64,000 nt of DNA, taken from the IMG/VR virus record IMGVR_UViG_3300009545_000021, positions 5,949-69,948 of that record. One strand, given 5' to 3'. The DNA comes from a virus. The notes under the pieces are model-generated. The model searched no databases and had not been told where the DNA came from. It saw nothing but the letters and a program-made list of their open reading frames with translations. A program made the translations under genes and the position numbers. Shown piece by piece: positions 5,661 to 58,016 of the stretch (within the stretch, counting starts at the first letter, position 1; every line of letters begins with the position of its first letter).

Positions 5661-6083
5661 TCAATCGAGATGCAGAAAGCCGTCATCGCCCTTGTAGGCG
5701 TCCGTCTGGCCCCATTGTTCGGCGGCCTTCGTCAAGGCGTCCTGCACGGCCTGGGGCAATTCGAGGCGGTCCCAATAGCCGACACCATGGCCGTTTCGGG
5801 TGCACCAAAAATCGCGGCCGGCCGACGTGTCGTCGTAGGCGCCCTCATAAGCGAGGGCGAGGCAGTCGCAATTTTCGACCTGGAAGCGGACACAGTCGCG
5901 CTTGATGGCTTCGAGCGTGTCGGGGTGAATGTCGCTGACGGTCATGCCGGCCAGCTCGTCGGCGGGGTCGCTGGTCTCGGTGAAGAAAAGCGCCTCGATG
6001 TAGCCGCGCGTAAAGGCGTCGAGATGATTGAAAGCTTCGACGGCCTCGATGCCGGGTCCGCCGGACAGGATAAATTCGGGCAT
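5661..6083 (-). CDS. conserved phage hypothetical protein
   Basis: GRDFWCTRNGHGVGYWDR motif seen in phage early proteins. Confidence 0.7.
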   Translation of the reverse strand: MPEFILSGGPGIEAVEAFNHLDAFTRGYIEALFFTETSDPADELAGMTVSDIHPDTLEAIKRDCVRFQVENCDCLALAYEGAYDDTSAGRDFWCTRNGHGVGYWDRLELPQAVQDALTKAAEQWGQTDAYKGDDGFLHLD

Positions 6084-9675: not shown

Positions 9676-10467
9676 ATGCAGCATGTCGTAATGTACTCGG
9701 GTGGCCTTGGTTCTTTCGGCGCCGCGCATCGCGTGATCGAGGCGCACGGCAAGGAGGGCATAACGCTTCTCTTCACCGATACCTTGATCGAGGATGAGGA
9801 TCTTTACCGCTTCCTCGACGACACCGAGCTGCATTTCGGCGTACCGGTGACGCGCATCAAAGATGGCCGCGACCCCTGGCGCGTCTTCAACGAGGTCCGG
9901 TTTCTCGGCAACACCCGGATCGATCCCTGCTCCCGCATCCTCAAGCGCGAGCTGGCCGATCGCTGGCTGGTGGAGAATTGCGATCCGTCCTCAACGACCG
10001 TGCACCTTGGAATCGATTGGACCGAACAGCATCGGTTCGATGACGGGAAGGGAGGGGGTGCCAGGCTGCGCTATCAGCGGAATGGCTGGCGCGCCGAAGC
10101 GCCGTTGTGTCAACCGCCCTATCTTTGGCGCTCCAGACTTTACGCGATGCTCGAGACCGTCGGTATCAAGCCGCCGCGGCTCTACGCGATGGGCTTCGTT
10201 CACAACAACTGCGGCGGCTTTTGCATCAAGGCAGGGCAGGGGCACTTTGCGCTGCTCCTCAAGACGATGCCGGAGCGTTATCGGTTGCACGAGGAAGAGG
10301 AGCTGGCCCTTGTCGAAAAACTCGGCGCGGAGGTGGCAATCCTGCGCGACCGGCGCGGCGGCAAAACCCGGCCGATGACGTTGCGCGACTTCCGGCTTAG
10401 GATCGAGGCGAAGCAAGCAATCGACGAAGACGAGATCGGCGGTTGCGGCTGTTTTGTTGATACCTAA
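9676..10467 (+). CDS. PP-loop (PAPS reductase-like) protein with Cys cluster
   Basis: N-terminal VVMYSGGLGS, LFTDT, CSRILKRE, HNNCGGFCIKAG, C-terminal GGCGCF. Confidence 0.8.
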   Translation: MQHVVMYSGGLGSFGAAHRVIEAHGKEGITLLFTDTLIEDEDLYRFLDDTELHFGVPVTRIKDGRDPWRVFNEVRFLGNTRIDPCSRILKRELADRWLVENCDPSSTTVHLGIDWTEQHRFDDGKGGGARLRYQRNGWRAEAPLCQPPYLWRSRLYAMLETVGIKPPRLYAMGFVHNNCGGFCIKAGQGHFALLLKTMPERYRLHEEEELALVEKLGAEVAILRDRRGGKTRPMTLRDFRLRIEAKQAIDEDEIGGCGCFVDT

Positions 10468-10501: not shown

Positions 10502-10750
10502 ATGTCCGTCTTCACCCCTGAGGAAGTCGCTTCGCTTTGGCGCTACCAGTTCGGCCCCTGGGGATCGCCCTTCGATCACGATCCCGTGAACCCGCCGCGC
10601 ATGCATCCCTTCACCTGCGGCAACCGTGACGGTCACCCTAAGATCGCCGGCGACAAGGGCATCCTCGTTCCGACGACCCGCGGCTGGATCTGCCCTATTT
10701 GTGATTACACTCAGGATTGGGCGTATGACCTTATGAAGAGGTGGCCATGA
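10502..10750 (+). CDS. small putative Zn-binding phage protein
   Basis: HPFTC...WICPICDYTQDWA. Confidence 0.6.
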   Translation: MSVFTPEEVASLWRYQFGPWGSPFDHDPVNPPRMHPFTCGNRDGHPKIAGDKGILVPTTRGWICPICDYTQDWAYDLMKRWP

Positions 10751-11061
10751 CCTATCTCGAGGCCCTCAGGGCGATGGAGACCGGGCGCCTAGTTCGTCGT
10801 CAGGGCTGGCCGCCGCTGCAGACCTTGCGGCGTTCGCTGCGCCGGCGCGTTCGGACGGATGAGTTCGGCCAGCCGTTGCGCGACCCTGGCGGCAACGCGA
10901 TCTGGGAATGGGCCCCATGTTTGGAGGAGCGGCTTATGGGGCGGGTTGTCTGGTCGGGCTGGGAACCGTTGCTCGAAGACATGCAGGGCGAGGATTGGCT
11001 GGTGGCGGCCGAGATCTGCGATCGCCCCTCGAAAAGGGAGAGGGTGAAGCATGCCGTCTGA
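10747..11061 (+). CDS. DUF2829 / Tad2-like protein
   Basis: MTYLEALRAMETGRLVRRQGW...WEPLLEDMQGEDWLV matches the family's N- and C-terminal motifs. Confidence 0.65.
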   Translation: MTYLEALRAMETGRLVRRQGWPPLQTLRRSLRRRVRTDEFGQPLRDPGGNAIWEWAPCLEERLMGRVVWSGWEPLLEDMQGEDWLVAAEICDRPSKRERVKHAV

Positions 11062-12687: not shown

Positions 12688-12854
12688 TTCAATACCCATA
12701 CAAAGGCCCAAACGATGAAAGTGAGGGCGGTCCACTCGACGATTTTGACCAGCGCGTCCGGCCAAGACATGCACGTTCTCCTGCAAATCCGAACATTTGA
12801 TTTGCATCCTGAAAAATTGGAAATCAAATCTACGTTTTTATCGGGAGTGAGCCC

Positions 12855-13178
12855 ATGGCCGATGCCGTCGATCCGATTGTCAAAGACCTGGCCAAGGCCA
12901 TCGGCGAAAAATTCGACCAGCAACTTTTCGACAAGATGAGCTTGCTCGACGACCCGAAACAGGCAACGGCCTTGGCTTACATGGCGGCGCTGCACACATG
13001 CATCTTCGCGGCAAAAATAACCGCCATCGGTCTGATGCACGGGCCGGAACACGCCGGCACGATCAAGGCGATGACGGAGGCGAACGAGACGGTGATCGAC
13101 CTCATCACCCGGGGCATGCGCACGGGCATGGCCATCTTGGAGCGGACGCAGCGTGGGCGGACATCTGCGCCTGGCTGA
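12855..13178 (+). CDS. hypothetical protein
   Basis: GGGAG RBS; divergent from 12687 across an AT-rich gap with inverted repeats. Confidence 0.55.
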   Translation: MADAVDPIVKDLAKAIGEKFDQQLFDKMSLLDDPKQATALAYMAALHTCIFAAKITAIGLMHGPEHAGTIKAMTEANETVIDLITRGMRTGMAILERTQRGRTSAPG

Positions 13179-13260
13179 AGGCGAACGGGCTGGAGATGCA
13201 CGTCACGCTCAAGGGCGAGGTCTGGTTCTGTACGGCTCGCACAAAAAGACCGCGACGTCC

Positions 13261-13290
13261 TTGACCGCGCAAAAGCGCGACGATAGGACT
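13261..13290 (+). promoter_or_regulatory. putative sigma70 promoter for the ncRNA locus
   Basis: TTGACC-17 nt-TAGGAC directly before about 570 nt of structured non-coding sequence. Confidence 0.55.
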
Positions 13291-13472
13291 CATAAACAGA
13301 GCGCATCGGTTGCGAAGGCCCCTTAATCCTCCCACGGGAGGGGTCGAGCCCTGGGTGATCAGGGCTTTCGGGTGCGCTCATCCTCTTCCTGTAGCGAGCG
13401 CAGACATGCGCTATCGGGCGGGCAGGGAGGCCGAGAAGGGGGATGCCCCGTTATCGAGCCTCCCGTAAGTTT

Positions 13473-13547
13473 AGCCGGGGCGAATGCTCGGCGGGTCTAC
13501 ATTCTGTCGAAATGAACGGACTCGCCAACCAACTCGTCGCCCCGGCT
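13473..13547 (+). ncRNA. Y RNA-like unit 1 (Ro-binding-type stem, no tRNA module)
   Basis: Terminal stem AGCCGGGGCG/CGCCCCGGCT, GGCGAATG motif, inner stem GGCGGGTC/GACTCGCC, TACATT. Confidence 0.7.
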
Positions 13548-13554
13548 TTCTCGA

Positions 13555-13690
13555 TCGACGTCGAGACGAATGCGGGTCGTGATTACATTGCTGGATCTTG
13601 GTTCGAATCCAAGTTGCTCCCTCGGGAGCGATGGCCGAATGGTAAGGCAAACGAAAGACATCACGTCCTATTTTGTCGTCTCGACGTCGA
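13555..13690 (+). ncRNA. YrlA-like Y RNA unit 2 with permuted tRNA module
   Basis: Stem TCGACGTCGAGACG/CGTCTCGACGTCGA, GACGAATG, TACATTG; T arm CTTGG-TTCGAAT-CCAAG, capped acceptor-like stem TTGCTCC/GGAGCGA, D arm GCC-GAATGGTAA-GGC. Confidence 0.85.
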
Positions 13691-13696
13691 CCCGTT

Positions 13697-13838
13697 CGAC
13701 GCTGCCGCGAATGCCTGTGTGACTACATTGTAAGCTTGAGGTCGTCGGTTCGATTCCGATCGCTGGGCGCAAGCCCGGTGTAGCTCAGGGGTTAGAGCGC
13801 AAGAGGACGTCATGCATTCCCTTGTCGCGGCAGCGTCG
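13697..13838 (+). ncRNA. YrlA-like Y RNA unit 3 with permuted tRNA module
   Basis: Stem CGACGCTGCCGCG/CGCGGCAGCGTCG, CGCGAATG, TACATTG; T arm GTCGG-TTCGATT-CCGAT, stem CGCTGGGC-GCAA-GCCCGGTG, D arm GCTC-AGGGGTTA-GAGC. Confidence 0.85.
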
Positions 13839-13867
13839 TTTCCTCCTCACGCCCTTGTGATCGGACA

Positions 13868-13884
13868 TTCCAGAATTTCTGGAA
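13868..13884. promoter_or_regulatory. operator-like palindrome before the vWA gene
   Basis: TTCCAGA-ATT-TCTGGAA, same half-sites as the operator at 60392-60406. Confidence 0.65.
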
Positions 13885-13888
13885 TTAG

Positions 13889-14683
13889 ATGACGGCCTCG
13901 CAACCGGGACCCCACCCCATGCAGCACGATTTCATTCTGCTCGACCGTTCGCAATCCATGGATTCACACTGGAGCGAAGCCCTCGCCGCGGTCAACACCT
14001 ACGTCGCCAAGCTCGCCGCCGACAAGGTCGATACCGGCGTCACGCTGGCGGTTTTCGATACCGTCGTCGGCCAGCCGAGCTTCGATATCCTGCGCGATCG
14101 CATCATCCCCTCGACCTGGCACCCGGTCGAAACGCGCGAGGCTTTTCCGCGTGGCATGACGCCGCTCTATGACAGCGTCGCCAAGATCGTCCACCTCGCC
14201 GAGCAGGGCAATTACAGCAAGGTCGCGATCATCATCATGACCGACGGCGAGGAGAATTCGAGCAAGGAGTACGACCGCAAGGGCGCGGCGGACCTGCTCG
14301 ACAAATGCCGCGCCAAGGATTGGGCGGTGATCTTCCTCGGCGCCTCGTTTGACAACCGTGTGCAGGCGGCCGGTCTCGGCGCGACGCGCAAGATGTCGGT
14401 GCCGATGTCCGCCGGCAATTACGTCTCCACCATCAACACCCTGTCGGCCAAGCGCGGGCTCTATGCCAGCGGTGCGGCGACGATGGACTCGATGGAGTTC
14501 AGCGACGCCGAGCTGGCCGAAGCTGTCACCCCGGCACCGGTCTGGGTGCCCGATCCCAATTATGCGCAGCCGGCGGATTTCGATCCGACGCCGAGCGCCG
14601 GTTCGCCGCCCGACAGCGCGCAGCCGGGCTCTTCGAGCAGTGATGATTCCGCCGCTTCGGTCGACGTAGGGTCCTCGACATGA
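13889..14683 (+). CDS. von Willebrand factor A (vWA) domain protein with acidic P/S-rich tail (start may be 13919)
   Basis: MIDAS DRSQS, GMTPLYD, IIIMTDGEENSS. Confidence 0.88.
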   Translation: MTASQPGPHPMQHDFILLDRSQSMDSHWSEALAAVNTYVAKLAADKVDTGVTLAVFDTVVGQPSFDILRDRIIPSTWHPVETREAFPRGMTPLYDSVAKIVHLAEQGNYSKVAIIIMTDGEENSSKEYDRKGAADLLDKCRAKDWAVIFLGASFDNRVQAAGLGATRKMSVPMSAGNYVSTINTLSAKRGLYASGAATMDSMEFSDAELAEAVTPAPVWVPDPNYAQPADFDPTPSAGSPPDSAQPGSSSSDDSAASVDVGSST

Positions 14684-15164: not shown

Positions 15165-15484
15165 TCACCCGCCGCAACTTCGTCGCCGGCCTGGCGGTTG
15201 CGCTGGCTGCACCGGCCATCGTGAAATACGAGTGGATCATGCCGGTTCGCTCGCTCAAGCCGGCGGTGATCCCGCCGCCGCAGCCCGAGATTGTTTTGGG
15301 TTACTATGCATTTTCAGAGGTCAGCGTGCCGGATGCCCTCAAGCGGGGTTGGTGGCGCGTTCGGCGCCTTTACATGAAAGATGGCAACGTCGAGATCTAC
15401 CGGGAATTCACGCCCTACGATCCTCGCCTTGGCGAGCCTTACCCCTACGTTCTGGATAAGTGGACGGAAACGCTCTCGACCTGA
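15152..15484 (+). CDS. second small protein with twin-arginine-like leader
   Basis: GGAG RBS; MSGLITRRNFVAGLAVALAAPAIVKYEWIMPV. Confidence 0.65.
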   Translation: MSGLITRRNFVAGLAVALAAPAIVKYEWIMPVRSLKPAVIPPPQPEIVLGYYAFSEVSVPDALKRGWWRVRRLYMKDGNVEIYREFTPYDPRLGEPYPYVLDKWTETLST

Positions 15485-17193
15485 CCCTGCGTCGGGCCCT
15501 CGCCAACGAACAGGCCGCTCTGCTCGAGCTGGACCGGATCGATTGCGAGGAGTCACTGTCGACCTTCGTGCGCGGAGGCTGGCGTTTTATCGATCCCGCG
15601 CCCCTGGTCTGGGGTTGGCACCTGGACGCCATTGCCGAGCACCTGCAGGGGGTGATGCTCGGTCATATCCGCAACCTTCTGATCAATGTGCCGCCGCGGT
15701 CCTCGAAATCCTCGATGATCTCGGTGGCCTTTCCGGCCTTCGTCTGGGCGCAACGCGAGCGCGGCCCGCTCGCCGGCCCGCAGGTGCAATTCCTCTGCGC
15801 CTCCTACGCGCAGCCGCTCTCCAACACCCTGTCGATCAAGTGCCGCAGCCTGATGCAGTCGCGCTGGTATCAGGAACGCTGGGGGGATCGGTTTCAGCTC
15901 GCCGGCGACCAGAACCGCGTCACCCGCTTCAACAACACCGAAAACGGCTACCGCATCGCCACTTCGGTTGATGGCGGCGCTACCGGCGAGGGCGGCAACG
16001 TCCTGATCATCGACGACGCGGTTTCGGCCAAGGAAGGCAATTCCGAGGCGCACCGGCTCGCTGCGAACGAATGGTGGGACACCACCATGTCGACCCGCCT
16101 CAACAACCCGGAGGTCGACGCCCGCATCATCGTCGCACAGCGCCTGCACGAAGACGACCTGCCCGGCCACGTCCTCGACAAGGACGATGGCAACGAATGG
16201 ACGCACCTCAATCTGCCGATGCGCTACGAAAGCGACCGGCATTGCGTCACCGTTTTGATGTGGGACGAGGAGGGCCAGCCGGCCAAGACCTGGCAAGATC
16301 CGCGCCTGGTCGAGGGCGAGCTGCTTTGCCCGGCCCGTTTCACCGATCGCGTCGTCTCCCGGCTCGAGCGCGATCTGGGTCCCTACAACGCCGCCGGCCA
16401 GCTGCAGCAGCGCCCCGAGCCCAAGGGCGGCGGCATCTTCAAATATGAGTGGTGGCAGCCTTTCGGCAATCCGACCGACCTCGCCGACCCGCTTTATCGC
16501 AAGTATCCCAAGTTCGATTACGTCGTCGCCTCGCTCGACACGGCCTATACCGAAAAACAGGAGAACGACTTTTCGGCCATGACGTTGTGGGGCGTCTGGT
16601 CTGGAAGGGCCCTCCCGATCTCGCCCGCCCGGGCCGATCGGGAGGGCAACCGCTACAACACCGGCGAAGAATCCCGCTGGCGTGATGCGATCGACGCGAC
16701 TAAGATCATGCTAGTTTGGGCGTGGCAGGAGCGTTTGGACCTGCACAGCCTGGTCAAGAAGGCGGCGCAGACCTGCAAGGATTTCAAGGTCGACCGGCTG
16801 CTGATCGAGGCGAAGGCCTCCGGCATCTCGGTGGCGCAGGAAATCCGCCGGCTCTACCTCAACGAAAGCTGGGGCGTTCAGCTCATCAACCCGGGCAACC
16901 TCGACAAGGTGGCGCGGGCCTATTCGGTGCAGCATCTGTTTTCGGAAGGCATGATTTGGGCGCCCTATCACGGCGACCAGCCGCGCAGCTGGGTCGAGCC
17001 GGTGATGCGGCAGATGGCCAGTTTCCCCAAAGCAACGCATGACGACTTGACCGATAGCGCCACGATGGCGCTGCGGCATTTGCGCGATGTCGGCTTTGCC
17101 GTGCGCTCTGCCGAAATCGAGGAGGAAATCGACCGTAGCCTGACCTATAGAGGCAAGCCGCCCGCGCCGCTTTATCCCGGCTGCGGCGCATGA
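15460..17193 (+). CDS. terL: terminase large subunit
   Basis: LLINVPPRSSKS Walker A variant, LIIDD Walker B, QRLHEDDL, nuclease SLDTA...IEAKASG...HDDLTDS. Confidence 0.95.
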   Translation: MDGNALDLTLRRALANEQAALLELDRIDCEESLSTFVRGGWRFIDPAPLVWGWHLDAIAEHLQGVMLGHIRNLLINVPPRSSKSSMISVAFPAFVWAQRERGPLAGPQVQFLCASYAQPLSNTLSIKCRSLMQSRWYQERWGDRFQLAGDQNRVTRFNNTENGYRIATSVDGGATGEGGNVLIIDDAVSAKEGNSEAHRLAANEWWDTTMSTRLNNPEVDARIIVAQRLHEDDLPGHVLDKDDGNEWTHLNLPMRYESDRHCVTVLMWDEEGQPAKTWQDPRLVEGELLCPARFTDRVVSRLERDLGPYNAAGQLQQRPEPKGGGIFKYEWWQPFGNPTDLADPLYRKYPKFDYVVASLDTAYTEKQENDFSAMTLWGVWSGRALPISPARADREGNRYNTGEESRWRDAIDATKIMLVWAWQERLDLHSLVKKAAQTCKDFKVDRLLIEAKASGISVAQEIRRLYLNESWGVQLINPGNLDKVARAYSVQHLFSEGMIWAPYHGDQPRSWVEPVMRQMASFPKATHDDLTDSATMALRHLRDVGFAVRSAEIEEEIDRSLTYRGKPPAPLYPGCGA

Positions 17194-53266: not shown

Positions 53267-53522
53267 CTGGGACTTTTCCTGGGACTTTCGGGTCCGCAGC
53301 TGTCCCTTGTTGGCCTTTGTTCTCCCTTGGTTGCCTCCCGTGAGGGAGGTGGAGAACATTCGTTATGACATTGATTTTTGAGGGGAAATTGTGGTCGGAG
53401 CGCCGAGATTTGAACTCGGGACCCCAAGTCCCCCAGACTTGTGCGCCAGATCCTATTTCTCCTTTACTGACATAGGTTTAAGGTCCATCTCGACCTGGTT
53501 CTGGGACTTTTTCTGGGACTTT
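53267..53522. repeat. integrase arm-type sites flanking the att core
   Basis: CTGGGACTTT at 53267, 53279, 53501 and 53513: two direct-repeat pairs with 12-bp period. Confidence 0.8.
53392..53446 (-). other. attP core: 3' part of tRNA-Pro(GGG)
   Basis: Minus strand GCGCA-CAAGT-CTGGGGG-ACTTG-GGGTC-CCGAG-TTCAAAT-CTCGG-CGCTCCG-ACCA; 5' acceptor strand and D loop missing; adjacent to int stop. Confidence 0.9.
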
Positions 53523-54667
53523 CTCGGCTGCGCGTCTGCGGCATCAAGGGTGTCGCGCACGTCGTTCATGTCGAGATGGGCATAGGTTTGCGCCGTGATG
53601 GCGATGGTGGCGTGCCCCAAAAGTTTCTGCGTCGCCTTGAGGTTCCCGGTCTTCTGGATCAGGCGCGAGGCCCGCGTGTGACGCATATCGTGGAAGCGGA
53701 CGGCCAAGCCCAAACCCTTCTTGTCCTGGACGACGCGGCGCCATTTCGTCTTGAGGCCCTGATAGGTCACAGGGTAGCGCGTGCCGCGCAGGCGCAGGAT
53801 CTTGGTCTTGTTCTCACGGCAGGTGCGCTCGCACACATAGGTGAAAACCCATTCGTCGTCGGCCTTCGGACAGGCAGACAGGATCGCGGCGATGGCGTTG
53901 GAAATCGGGATGGTGTGGGGGCGGCCACCCTTCTGGGTGACGGTGATGGTGCGGCTATCCCAATCGATCTGATCCCAGCGCAGCAGGCACTCGGCCAGGC
54001 GCAGGCCGGCGGCCAGGGCGAAGCGGAAGACATCGCGAAAGCCTTCGGGCAACTCTTCGGCGATGCGGTCCTCGTCGGATAGTTTCAGGACGCGCATGAC
54101 GGCGCCCTTGCGCGTCGGCAGGAGGTGGGTCGTCCATTTCGGCTCGAAGGGAAGGGCCTGCTTCCACACTTCCTTGGCGCGGCGAAAGATCGGCTGCAGC
54201 AGCTTGATCGTGGTCATGTTGACGGTGCGCGGTGCCACGAGCTGTTCGGCCGCGCCGGCCTTGGTCTTCTTGCGGCCCCAGCGCGTCTCGCCGCGGCGGC
54301 TGGCAACCCAAAGAGCAATGTCGTTGTCGGTGATGCTGTCGAGCCGGCGGTTGGCCCCAAAATAGTCGCGGGCGCGATTGAGGTGGGTGTGCAGCTGGCT
54401 CGCCATGGCTTGGCCGATCGCCACCTCGGCCCAATAGCGATCGCAGGCCTGGCCGATGGTCATCGGGGCCAGGCCCTTGCCTACGGCCTTAGCGGCACGA
54501 CTTTGCCGGGCCCATTCCTCGGCTTCGGCGAGGATCGGCTGGACGGCGGCCCGGGCTTTGGCTTCGGTGGTGGCGGTCGTTGATCCAGAGAACCGACGGC
54601 CGCCGCGCTCGAAATCGTAGACGTAGGTCTTGGACCCCTTTGGTTTGTAGACGAGTTTGCTGCCCAA
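53453..54667 (-). CDS. int: tyrosine integrase
   Basis: GLRLAE, QKGG, HDMRH, LLGH, TYAH catalytic motifs; AGGAG RBS before TTG 54667; N-terminal arm-binding segment. Confidence 0.93.
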   Translation of the reverse strand: MGSKLVYKPKGSKTYVYDFERGGRRFSGSTTATTEAKARAAVQPILAEAEEWARQSRAAKAVGKGLAPMTIGQACDRYWAEVAIGQAMASQLHTHLNRARDYFGANRRLDSITDNDIALWVASRRGETRWGRKKTKAGAAEQLVAPRTVNMTTIKLLQPIFRRAKEVWKQALPFEPKWTTHLLPTRKGAVMRVLKLSDEDRIAEELPEGFRDVFRFALAAGLRLAECLLRWDQIDWDSRTITVTQKGGRPHTIPISNAIAAILSACPKADDEWVFTYVCERTCRENKTKILRLRGTRYPVTYQGLKTKWRRVVQDKKGLGLAVRFHDMRHTRASRLIQKTGNLKATQKLLGHATIAITAQTYAHLDMNDVRDTLDAADAQPRKSQKKSQNQVEMDLKPMSVKEK

Positions 54668-54855
54668 GGGGCGGTGCTCCTGTTGCGTTCGATAAAGGCG
54701 GAGAGGTCGGCTTCCTGAAAGAGGATCTTCTTGCGAACCTTGCCGTTGCCGGCGCGAATGAAGGTGATTTCGTTGTCGTCGATATGCCGGCGCAGGGTTT
54801 TGGCGCTGATCTTCAAGAGACCGGCGGCCTCGTGCAGGGTGAGCAGGGCTTCCAT
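54481..54855 (-). CDS. excisionase-like HTH protein
   Basis: LLTLHEAAGLLKISAKTLRRHI...ILFQEADLSAFIE; overlaps int 5' end. Confidence 0.8.
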   Translation of the reverse strand: MEALLTLHEAAGLLKISAKTLRRHIDDNEITFIRAGNGKVRKKILFQEADLSAFIERNRSTAPWAANSSTNQRGPRPTSTISSAAAVGSLDQRPPPPKPKPGPPSSRSSPKPRNGPGKVVPLRP

Positions 54856-55087
54856 CAGGGCACCTCATCGCCGACGGACAGGCTCTCGAGATCGGTCCCG
54901 ACCAGCCGCAGTTGCATGAAGTTGAAAATATGCACGATGCCGTCGTCGTTTTCGACCACGGCGCGCCACTGGCCGCTGCGCTTTTGAAAGACGGCGACCA
55001 AGTTGCCCCGAAAATAATAGTCGCCACCGACCTTTTCGACCCGGCAACCGACATAGCTGGTGAAGGGGAGGGACATGAAGCCGTCGC

Positions 55088-56672: not shown

Positions 56673-58016
56673 TCACTGCTGGAGGGTTTTGTGCCTGGCC
56701 TGATAGCCCGCCAGCCAGGCCTGGCGGAGAGGGGTGTTTTCGATAAGGTCTTCCGGCGGATCGGCCATCTTGCCGGCGGCGGCGGCGAGCGAGCCGCGCT
56801 TGCGGGCCCGGGACAGCTCTTCGTCGTCGACCGACGCATCGGCCTGGACCTGCGGGCGACCGGGCGGGGGCGCGGGCGGTGCCGGCGGGGTGGCCGGTTC
56901 CGGCGTGTCGGCCAGGGTGCGCTCGATCGCCCGGGCCTTCATGGCGATCAGGGTGCGGGTCTCGGCGGCCGACAGCACGCGCGGCGGCTGCTGGCGCTTG
57001 GCCCAACGCTCCTCGATCTCCATCGGTGACTTGCAGGCGGCCAGCGCCTTGTCGGCGGCGATCAAATAGCGGGCGAAGTCGAAATCGCTCTCGCCGACGA
57101 CTTCGCGCACCGGGGCCTCAGCCGGGGCCGGCTTGGGCGCAGGCGGTGGGGGCGGGGTGGGCGGCGCCGGCTCCGAGGGTGGCGGTGGGGGTTCGGGTGC
57201 CGGCGGAGGAGGAGGCGGCGCAGGGGGCGTTTGCGGCGCTTCCTGGGGCATATCTTCGGGCGGTACGTCCTCGCTCTCCGGCTCGGGCGCCGGCTCGTTC
57301 TGATTGGCGGGGACCGGGATCTCGCGCGGCGCGCCGACCTGCACCGAACCGCCATCGGTCTCGACCACGGCATCGATGATGACCTCGTCGGCCGGCGGCC
57401 TGTTGTGGCCGATCGGCGGCGGAGGCGGCTGCAGCGAGATGCCGTCCTGCATCGGCACGTCCTGCTGCTCTTCGATAATGGCCAGGCCCTTGAGCACATC
57501 GGGGAAAGCATCGCGCAAGGCGAAGGCGCGGGCGCGCATCTGCAGCATGCGCTTGGCATAGCCCTGCCAGGGGCCGGGCTTGGCCCACAGCTGGGCGCGC
57601 TTGGCCTCGGCTACCGAAAACTCGCCCTTCTTCGGCTTCTTGCCCTTGCGGTGAACGAGGCAAACCGCCTTCCATGAATCGGTGAACTCGACGCCCTCCA
57701 TGAATTCCTCATGGTCGTCGAGCAGGCCGGAGCGCTCGCACAGGCCGAGGGCGGCATCGCCCCAAACCGAGGGGCGGCCGTTGATCATGGCAATCGACTG
57801 CAGCGCCATCATCGGCGGCAAGCCGACTTCCATGCCGTGCAGGATGGCGGCGACGGCCGTCTCTGCGCTCTTGAACGGCGTCCAGCCGGCGGCGACGGCG
57901 AGCTGTGCCAGGCGCCAGGCCTCGTCGATCGTGGTCGGCACGATCGCCTTGACGGTGGCGCCGGCGACGATCGGGCCCTTGTTCGGGCGCGCGTCTTCGA
58001 TCTGCAGTGCGGACAT
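56673..58016 (-). CDS. RecT-like single-strand annealing protein with Pro-rich tail
   Basis: GMEVGLPPMMALQSIAMINGRPSVWGD...PWQGYAKRMLQMRARAFALRDAFPDVLKG. Confidence 0.85.
   Translation of the reverse strand: MSALQIEDARPNKGPIVAGATVKAIVPTTIDEAWRLAQLAVAAGWTPFKSAETAVAAILHGMEVGLPPMMALQSIAMINGRPSVWGDAALGLCERSGLLDDHEEFMEGVEFTDSWKAVCLVHRKGKKPKKGEFSVAEAKRAQLWAKPGPWQGYAKRMLQMRARAFALRDAFPDVLKGLAIIEEQQDVPMQDGISLQPPPPPIGHNRPPADEVIIDAVVETDGGSVQVGAPREIPVPANQNEPAPEPESEDVPPEDMPQEAPQTPPAPPPPPPAPEPPPPPSEPAPPTPPPPPAPKPAPAEAPVREVVGESDFDFARYLIAADKALAACKSPMEIEERWAKRQQPPRVLSAAETRTLIAMKARAIERTLADTPEPATPPAPPAPPPGRPQVQADASVDDEELSRARKRGSLAAAAGKMADPPEDLIENTPLRQAWLAGYQARHKTLQQ

Follow-up and report, generated by a model that had tools for sequence, protein, structure and literature searches.

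Y RNAs are small RNAs whose usual partner is the ring-shaped protein Ro60. The phage locus described here carries three RNA units that resemble them, which raises two questions: whether these units are genuine Y RNAs, and what such RNAs would serve in a phage that brings no Ro60 of its own. The window, i.e., the whole stretch of DNA that was analyzed (64,000 nucleotides), corresponds to positions 5949–69948 of an IMG/VR phage record of 69,948 bp (labeled G000).

Architecture of the Array

Three structured RNA units lie on the + strand at window positions 13473–13838, separated by spacers of 7 and 6 nt, with a protein-coding gene following closely on the same strand.

13473–13547, + strand: unit 1, short YrlB-like Y RNA without a tRNA-like module, 75 nt
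13555–13690, + strand: unit 2, YrlA-like Y RNA, 136 nt
13697–13838, + strand: unit 3, YrlA-like Y RNA, 142 nt
13889–14683, + strand: stand-alone vWA/MIDAS protein, 264 aa, starting 51 nt after unit 3

Each unit is closed by a terminal stem that is a perfect inverted repeat (100% complementary), and the stem sequences differ between units. In unit 1, an 11-bp stem (13473–13483/13537–13547, with GGCGAATG on the 5′ strand) encloses a second stem (GGCGGGTC/GACTCGCC) and TACATT at 13498–13503. The 15-bp stem of unit 2 (13555–13569/13676–13690) is accompanied by GACGAATG at 13565–13572, TACATT at 13584–13589, and TTTTGTCG on the 3′ strand, and the 14-bp stem of unit 3 (13697–13710/13825–13838) by CGCGAATG, TACATT at 13724–13729, and CCTTGTCG on the 3′ strand. 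All three units have CGAATGC in the 5′ strand and GTCG in the 3′ strand, with TACATT following the second stem.

Units 2 and 3 additionally harbor a tRNA-like part with the T-arm block GGTTCGA(A/T)TCC. It consists of a T arm with GGTTCGAATCC (13600–13610), a loop-capped acceptor-like stem, and a D arm in unit 2, and of a T arm with GGTTCGATTCC (13747–13757), an 8-bp acceptor-like stem with a GCAA cap, and a D arm (GCTCAGGGGTTAGAGC) in unit 3. The acceptor-like stem is tetraloop-capped in both, and neither unit has an anticodon arm or a free CCA end. Unit 1 folds with an energy of −38.4 kcal/mol (z −4.87), and the z values of units 2 and 3 are −5.77 and −3.88, respectively; each unit beats 200 of 200 dinucleotide shuffles.

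No sigma-70-like promoter was found by a scan of positions 12800–14000, and a terminator scan near the array returned two terminator-like sites, both on the minus strand and unrelated to the array. Since the spacers are so short, the three units would probably be made as one precursor, which would then be trimmed to RNAs of about 75, 136, and 142 nt. Between unit 3 and the start of the vWA gene lies a 9-bp perfect inverted repeat with a 1-nt spacer (ATTCCAGAA T TTCTGGAAT, 13867–13885) that could be an operator or a hairpin.

Identity of the Three Units

At gathering thresholds, Rfam gives no matches in the 64-kb window. In E-value mode, a search of 701 bases yields three full-length matches, all on the + strand and in tandem: YrlA (RF02553) at 13704–13834 for unit 3 (50.2 bits, E = 2.9e-10, model positions 1–114), YrlA at 13563–13685 for unit 2 (38.5 bits, E = 7.1e-7, model positions 1–114), and YrlB (RF02565) at 13473–13547 for unit 1 (32.5 bits, E = 1.1e-4, model positions 1–78), these E-values holding for the 701-base search and being about 90 times larger if the whole window is taken. 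All three scores lie below the gathering scores of the two models, which are 69 bits for YrlA and 97 bits for YrlB. The 38–50 bits of units 2 and 3 are similar to the scores of Ro60-adjacent phage Y RNAs such as those of G037 (53.2 bits) and G058 (46.4 bits). The motif GNCGAAN0–1G on the 5′ strand of the terminal stem, a YrlA motif (Chen et al. 2014, PMC4201824), is present as GACGAAUG in unit 2 and as CGCGAAUG in unit 3, which has a paired C in place of the first G.

Two covariance models were used in addition. R1 was built from an alignment of 34 sequences, and R2 was rebuilt without the sequences of the window, from 32 Y RNAs of other phages. R1 has exactly three strong matches in the whole phage. 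R2 recovers unit 3 with 93.8 bits (E = 3.2e-21), unit 2 with 86.3 bits (E = 2.3e-19), and unit 1 with 45.3 bits (E = 2.5e-9), and finds nothing better than E = 0.33 elsewhere in the window. The alignments of units 2 and 3 to Rfam and R1 place the T arm, the loop-capped acceptor-like stem, and the D arm in that order. When unit 1 is aligned to R1, the 75 model positions of the tRNA module shrink to 7 nt, and both stems are aligned by R1 and R2 alike.

Tandem tRNAs are a known source of false positives in YrlA searches (Chen et al. 2014, PMC4201824). ARAGORN predicts no tRNA genes in the window, so the units are not false positives of this kind. The Rfam hits carry particular weight as independent evidence, because the pattern with which homologs were retrieved came from the window's own units. 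Judged by sequence and model alignment, the three units are genuine Y RNAs of the bacterial YrlA/YrlB kind; the names YrlA-like and YrlB-like are used here because their scores fall short of the gathering scores and no Ro60 gene is adjacent.

Homologs and Covariation

A motif pattern derived from the units of the window retrieved 58 stretches from IMG/VR, which gave 48 distinct candidates with a closing stem; 14 length outliers were dropped and 34 sequences aligned (alignment A2). Since the conserved blocks are prescribed by the pattern used for retrieval, and the alignment follows the model, conservation of these blocks is partly built in, and the invariance of CGAAUGC in all 34 aligned phage homologs is required by the pattern itself. 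RNAalifold predicts 30 pairs in five helices from the 34 sequences (terminal stem, second stem, T arm, acceptor-like stem, and D arm), with compensatory changes at 25 of the 30 pairs.

A search with R1 returned 180 hits, individual checks being confined to the stronger half, and the 150 best matches, from 77 sources, were used for covariation. In these model-aligned homologs, 95.4% of the cells are paired versus 61.5% in shuffles, and slid controls give 36–47%; changes on both sides occur in 29 of the 30 pairs. Helices 3–5, which make up the tRNA-like domain, have compensatory changes in 15 of 16 pairs. The predicted fold is therefore backed by strong covariation across about 150 phage homologs, and the three divergent paralogs of the window likewise keep it through compensatory changes.

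These results bear on most of what the initial annotation had claimed from the sequence. Its three back-to-back units at 13473–13547, 13555–13690, and 13697–13838 are placed accurately, with perfect terminal stems that all beat 200 shuffles. Its proposal of one architecture with different stem sequences and covariation among copies is borne out by stems that differ around shared CGAATGC and TACATT blocks and by homologs that covary. The order of T arm, acceptor-like stem, and D arm that it described for units 2 and 3, and found lacking in unit 1, reappears in the Rfam and R1 alignments. It had also called the units Y RNA-like, which agrees with two YrlA matches and one YrlB match in Rfam (below gathering, E from 1e-4 to 3e-10) and with R2 scores of 45–94 bits. 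In line with this call, the Rfam YrlA model matches units 2 and 3 over its full length, albeit below the gathering score, and the covariance models R1 and R2 recover all three units, with covariation in the homologs.

The T/acceptor/D part of unit 3 (13737–13801) is 82.6% identical over 65 nt to positions 87773–87838 of Gordonia phage Sixama, a stretch that is the junction of two adjacent tRNA genes (tRNA-Met/tRNA-Ile). This likeness hints that YrlA-type modules could arise from tandem tRNAs.

Genomic Setting

The record carries direct terminal repeats, has a completeness of 100% and a GC content of 64%, and is a complete temperate phage genome. The only sequencing run found to contain this DNA is a rhizosphere metagenome (a DNA run), which is probably its source. 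Besides the array and the vWA gene, the genome encodes the following.

9676–10467: PAPS-reductase-like gene
10741–11061, + strand: Tad2-like (Thoeris anti-defense 2) protein, 106 aa (Pfam PF11195, 32 bits, cut-off 25)
upstream of the array: DUF551 gene
15460–17193: large terminase (TerL), followed by portal, major head protein, and tail genes
53453–55054, − strand: tyrosine integrase
56673–58016, − strand: RecT-like annealing protein, plus exonucleases
elsewhere in the phage genome: DnaB helicase and DNA methyltransferase

With the Tad2-like gene lying 2.4 kb upstream of the array, this stretch of the genome looks accessory or anti-defense in nature. A stretch at the C-terminus of the RecT-like protein weakly resembles ribosome modulation factor, with a score below threshold (PF04957, 22.8 bits, cut-off 27.9).

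TerL–portal synteny is retained in 69 of the 80 loci with the closest TerL relatives, and none of these 80 loci has a vWA gene or an R1 match; both the array and the vWA gene are thus accessory in this phage. No close relatives of the phage that carry the array were found, nor were any relatives of it among the Y RNA loci. Its best vWA relative is 56% identical and its best TerL relative 55%, and phage G001 shares with it four gene regions only (vWA, TerL, portal, and the next ORF), at 41–56% identity.

Directly after the integrase stop, on the minus strand at 53392–53447, is a 3′ fragment resembling tRNA-Pro(GGG) that comprises an anticodon arm, a T arm, an acceptor strand, and CCA and lies 40 kb from the array. 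This 56-nt fragment is probably the attP core and hence a lead to the host. Allowing up to three mismatches, it has no matches in five genomes and in 401 further genomes of uncertain phylum, and an Rfam search around the integrase returned nothing relevant.

The Neighboring vWA Gene

The vWA gene occupies the position relative to the Y RNAs at which phage Ro60 genes are usually found. Its product matches Pfam VWA with 23.8 bits, exactly at the cut-off, and phrog_7371 with E = 8.5e-27; VWA and VWA_CoxE are the only Pfam families detected, with no match to TROVE or vWA_Ro60. It has an N-terminal MIDAS motif, and its AlphaFold2 model (pLDDT 83.4) resembles generic vWA and integrin I domains in the top Foldseek matches, with no Ro60 among the matches listed. 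An HMM of phage Ro60s does not match the protein at E ≤ 10, and hhalign against the vWA domain of a phage Ro60 gives a probability of 68%. The protein has 264 aa, versus 438–545 aa for three phage Ro60 ORFs. That it is a split or truncated Ro60 was considered and rejected: phage Ro60s keep a vWA domain of their own, and the likeness seen here is generic to vWA domains.

Relatives of the vWA protein are common in Hyphomonadaceae, Caulobacterales, and other alphaproteobacterial MAGs and also occur in Gordonia, Streptomyces, Microbacterium, and Pseudomonas phages, often beside tRNA arrays. R1 has nine matches in six of 80 viral vWA loci. The matches in L035, L037, and L074/L075 overlap tandem tRNAs, as does the second match in L058. 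True Y RNA/vWA neighbors are the present phage, L058 (183–316), and L133, with distances of up to about 3.3 kb in the latter two. None of 80 bacterial vWA loci has a Y RNA within 5 kb of the vWA gene. Because most Y RNA hits beside viral vWA genes are tandem tRNAs, the vWA family appears to go with tRNA islands generally, and a general vWA/Y RNA gene pair is mostly rejected. In locus L002, a piece at 2700–2770 between tRNA genes, just upstream of a vWA homolog, has a T arm, a UCCA-capped stem, and a D arm without the CGAAUGC/UACAU stem; this could be either a YrlA-type tRNA-like module that stands on its own or an unusual junction of tRNAs.

Absence of Ro60

The phage encodes no Ro60 or TROVE protein. 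Ro60 was searched for in three ways, two of them with working positive controls. Pfam TROVE has no matches in the whole phage. Profiles of three and of 11 phage Ro60s both find nothing in it at E ≤ 1, and the best E-value of an HMM of the 11 phage Ro60s is 0.85. The same HMM finds unseen Ro60s in four control loci with E-values from 1e-38 to 2e-181. The only 471-aa ORF outside the window is the DnaB helicase. Pfam was not relied on alone because it misses a clear phage Ro60 in G106 (locus L155), which the 11-Ro60 profile detects with E = 1.6e-163. This profile also finds Ro60 in G058 and G074, the G074 match containing one in-frame TGA. The initial annotation had noted no Ro60 gene nearby, and by Pfam TROVE, both profiles, and the HMM, that statement extends to the whole phage; no Ro60 lies within 4 kb on the same strand, the distance used in the published survey.

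Absence of Ro60 is not confined to this phage. Fifteen of the records with a pattern hit have a rated completeness of 90% or more. The Y RNAs of 13 are confirmed by R1 (G126 and G129 have no R1 match and were excluded), and TROVE is present in 11 of the 13. The two exceptions, G081 and G100, lack terminal repeats, so that their completeness is a CheckV estimate only. Their Y RNAs are strong (87.6 and 106.3 bits, respectively), and the 11-Ro60 profile (A5) finds nothing in either. Neither has a protein in common with G000, whose GC content of 64% compares with 68% in G081 and 41% in G100. The Ro60-less state is thus a recurrent minority state, of which G000 is the best-documented case. Of five vWA-bearing bacterial genomes, one (Asticcacaulis biprosthecium C19) has TROVE, which says little about the real host.

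Y RNA Arrays in Other Phages

After four of 150 model hits that overlapped ARAGORN tRNAs were dropped, the census comprised 50 loci with Y RNAs. At least two units are present in 32 of them and at least three in 23, with a maximum of nine; long and short units are mixed in 24, and ARAGORN tRNAs occur in 36. Tandem mixed Y RNA arrays are therefore the norm in phages, and many lie beside a phage Ro60 with a vWA domain of its own. The large arrays, of up to nine units, are found in IMG/VR loci L129–L186 (e.g., L170, L150, L174, and L155), where YrlA-like units are combined with YrlB-like ones, mostly inside tRNA islands; a description of arrays on this scale was not found in the literature examined.

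In G001, a calcineurin-like metallophosphoesterase gene (by Pfam) lies directly 3′ of the phage Ro60 (L120, 2178–2912), and an ORF of G035 (L118, 4–489) has an N-terminal motif that by eye resembles that of the G001 enzyme. A metallophosphoesterase may be a recurrent partner of Ro60 in phages.

The initial annotation had regarded the array as an orphan, diversified phage Y RNA cassette. The orphan part stands insofar as there is no Ro60 gene, while a tandem array proves to be ordinary (32 of 50 loci) and the Ro60-less state recurs (two of 13 phages). Because arrays are ordinary and Ro60-less phages recur, the novelty is real but narrower than had been implied, and the interest lies in Ro60 being absent repeatedly rather than in the array as such. 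Phage Y RNAs beside a phage Ro60 are known; Y RNAs in complete phages without Ro60 appear to be new. No report of Y RNAs in Ro60-less phages came out of a literature search that lay outside supplementary tables, which may list exceptions.

Comparison with Known Y RNAs and tRNA Islands

Units 2 and 3 share with YrlA (RF02553) the long 5′/3′ stem with the CGAA(U)G motif opposite UUGUCG, the second stem, and the order of T arm, loop-capped acceptor-like stem, and D arm without an anticodon arm. Unit 1 resembles YrlB (RF02565), the short Salmonella Y RNA that has no tRNA-like domain, in its terminal stem with GGCGAAUGC, CGAAUG motif, second stem, UACAU block, and small apical hairpin. In the known operon, yrlB directly precedes yrlA, and unit 1 likewise lies directly upstream of the YrlA-type units. 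Unlike YrlB, however, unit 1 is phage-borne and has no rsr or rtcBA genes alongside. The YrlA RNAs of the published set lie near Ro60 (Chen et al. 2014, PMC4201824), whereas the phage array has no Ro60 anywhere and scores below gathering. That survey, which reports Y RNAs beside Ro60 for 22 phages, searched only TROVE-bearing genomes and took Y RNAs that share a strand with Ro60 and lie at most 4 kb from it.

Among phage systems, Yrl1 and Yrl2 of Thermus phage phiLo (2025, PMC12135203) are tandem Y-like RNAs with the CGAA motif, as in the array, and the Y RNAs of mycobacteriophages, CcrColossus, and Bacillus phage G also occur several in tandem with this motif. The phiLo Yrl RNAs bind the phage Ro60 and host PNPase, and hijacking of host PNPase is their proposed use (PMC12135203). 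All of these phages bring Ro60 immediately downstream, whereas G000 brings the RNAs only; the host of phiLo is reported to lack Ro60 (PMC12135203). Phage Y RNAs beside Ro60 are also described in a jumbo-phage survey, and they have been no more than suggested for Listeria phage CKA15 (2025) and for Bas63 (2024). With phage tRNA islands, the array shares an accessory position between early and packaging genes. It differs from them in that the phage has no tRNA gene at all and the units can neither be aminoacylated nor decode.

Proposed Function and Alternatives

In the known RYPER complex, the tRNA-like module of a Y RNA recruits PNPase. We give about an even chance to the reading that the units are real Y RNAs that load onto host Ro60 in trans, with the tRNA-like module tethering PNPase or tRNA-binding enzymes. 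All three units keep the bulged helix that Ro60 recognizes in known Y RNAs, and units 2 and 3 a mimic of the tRNA elbow. Once expressed, the RNAs would load onto a Ro60 ring (Rsr) supplied in trans by the host, the tRNA-like module would tether the ring to host PNPase or other tRNA-binding enzymes, and host RNA decay and quality control would be redirected during lysogeny or lytic growth. Unit 1 keeps CGAAUGC, UACAU, GUCG, and both stems with little else, which we read as selection on a Ro60-binding module. A Ro60-type helix common to all three units, one of which is little more than that helix, points to a partner that resembles Ro60; with none encoded by the phage, host Rsr is the obvious candidate.

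The main rival dispenses with Ro60. In gel shifts, phiLo Yrl1 and Yrl2 bind host PNPase even when Ro60 is absent (PMC12135203), so the protein may not be needed, and YrlA RNAs are described as substrates of tRNA enzymes (PMC4201824). The units might then be tRNA-elbow mimics or PNPase ligands that bind or soak up host PNPase, RNase P, tRNA-modifying enzymes, or a defense nuclease, as a host-takeover or anti-defense device. Such a role would suit both a phage without Ro60 and the accessory nature of the stretch, in which a Tad2-like anti-Thoeris gene is found as well. This reading nevertheless leaves the strict keeping of the Ro60-binding motif unexplained, including in unit 1, where the Ro60-type helix is kept although a tRNA-like module is missing, and the lack of an anticodon arm and of a free CCA end would leave anticodon nucleases and acceptor-end toxins without a target; we consider it rather unlikely. 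The initial annotation had proposed that the array might titrate or retarget host Ro60/PNPase or serve as a decoy for tRNA-targeting defenses. A pure tRNA-decoy role fits poorly for similar reasons, there being no anticodon arm, no free acceptor end, and, in unit 1, no tRNA part at all.

The remaining alternatives are less probable. An ancestral Y RNA/Ro60 cassette might have lost its Ro60 and left the RNAs as decaying, functionless remnants, as could be expected from the arrays that flank Ro60 in most phages (11 of 13 complete genomes) and from a vWA gene, not Ro60, being next after the array. Such decay is improbable given terminal stems that are 100% complementary, conserved blocks that are all intact, scores equal to those of Ro60-linked homologs, three divergent paralogs that keep the fold by compensatory changes, and an orphan state that occurs in at least three unrelated phages. 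The adjacent vWA protein, encoded 51 nt downstream on the same strand, could instead form a new RNP with the Y RNAs and partly replace Ro60; array and gene are both accessory and missing from the 80 closest TerL-relative loci, and in L058 and L133 a vWA homolog has a true Y RNA no farther than about 3.3 kb away. Yet the vWA fold is generic, without Ro60-specific likeness, no RNA-binding domain was found in the protein, none of 80 bacterial vWA loci has a Y RNA within 5 kb, and the viral hits are mostly tandem tRNAs, which makes such a partnership quite improbable. That the units are not Y RNAs and represent tandem tRNA pseudogenes, attachment-site debris, or chance hairpins is largely refuted and highly improbable: the sub-gathering Rfam scores and the 82.6% likeness of a 65-nt part of unit 3 to the Sixama tRNA-Met/tRNA-Ile junction are outweighed by the lack of ARAGORN tRNAs, full-length model matches that include both non-tRNA stems, strong covariation, and a real attP-like tRNA fragment that lies 40 kb away, beside the integrase.

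Implications for Phage Y RNAs

So far, Y RNAs of bacteria and phages have come to light through searches next to Ro60 genes. The present array, together with G081 and G100, indicates that strong Y RNAs also occur in complete Ro60-less phages. Since Rfam gathering thresholds miss these RNAs and Pfam TROVE missed the Ro60 of G106, phage Y RNAs and Ro60s are probably under-annotated. The array offers a simple system for asking what Y RNAs do alone or with a foreign Ro60. Tentatively, and at somewhat less than even chances, we propose that some temperate phages, in at least three independent origins, carry only the RNA half of the Ro60 RNP and take the host Ro60 ring, or PNPase directly, to re-aim RNA surveillance. 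If this is true, the presence or absence of a phage-encoded Ro60 in Y RNA phages should follow from whether the host has Ro60.
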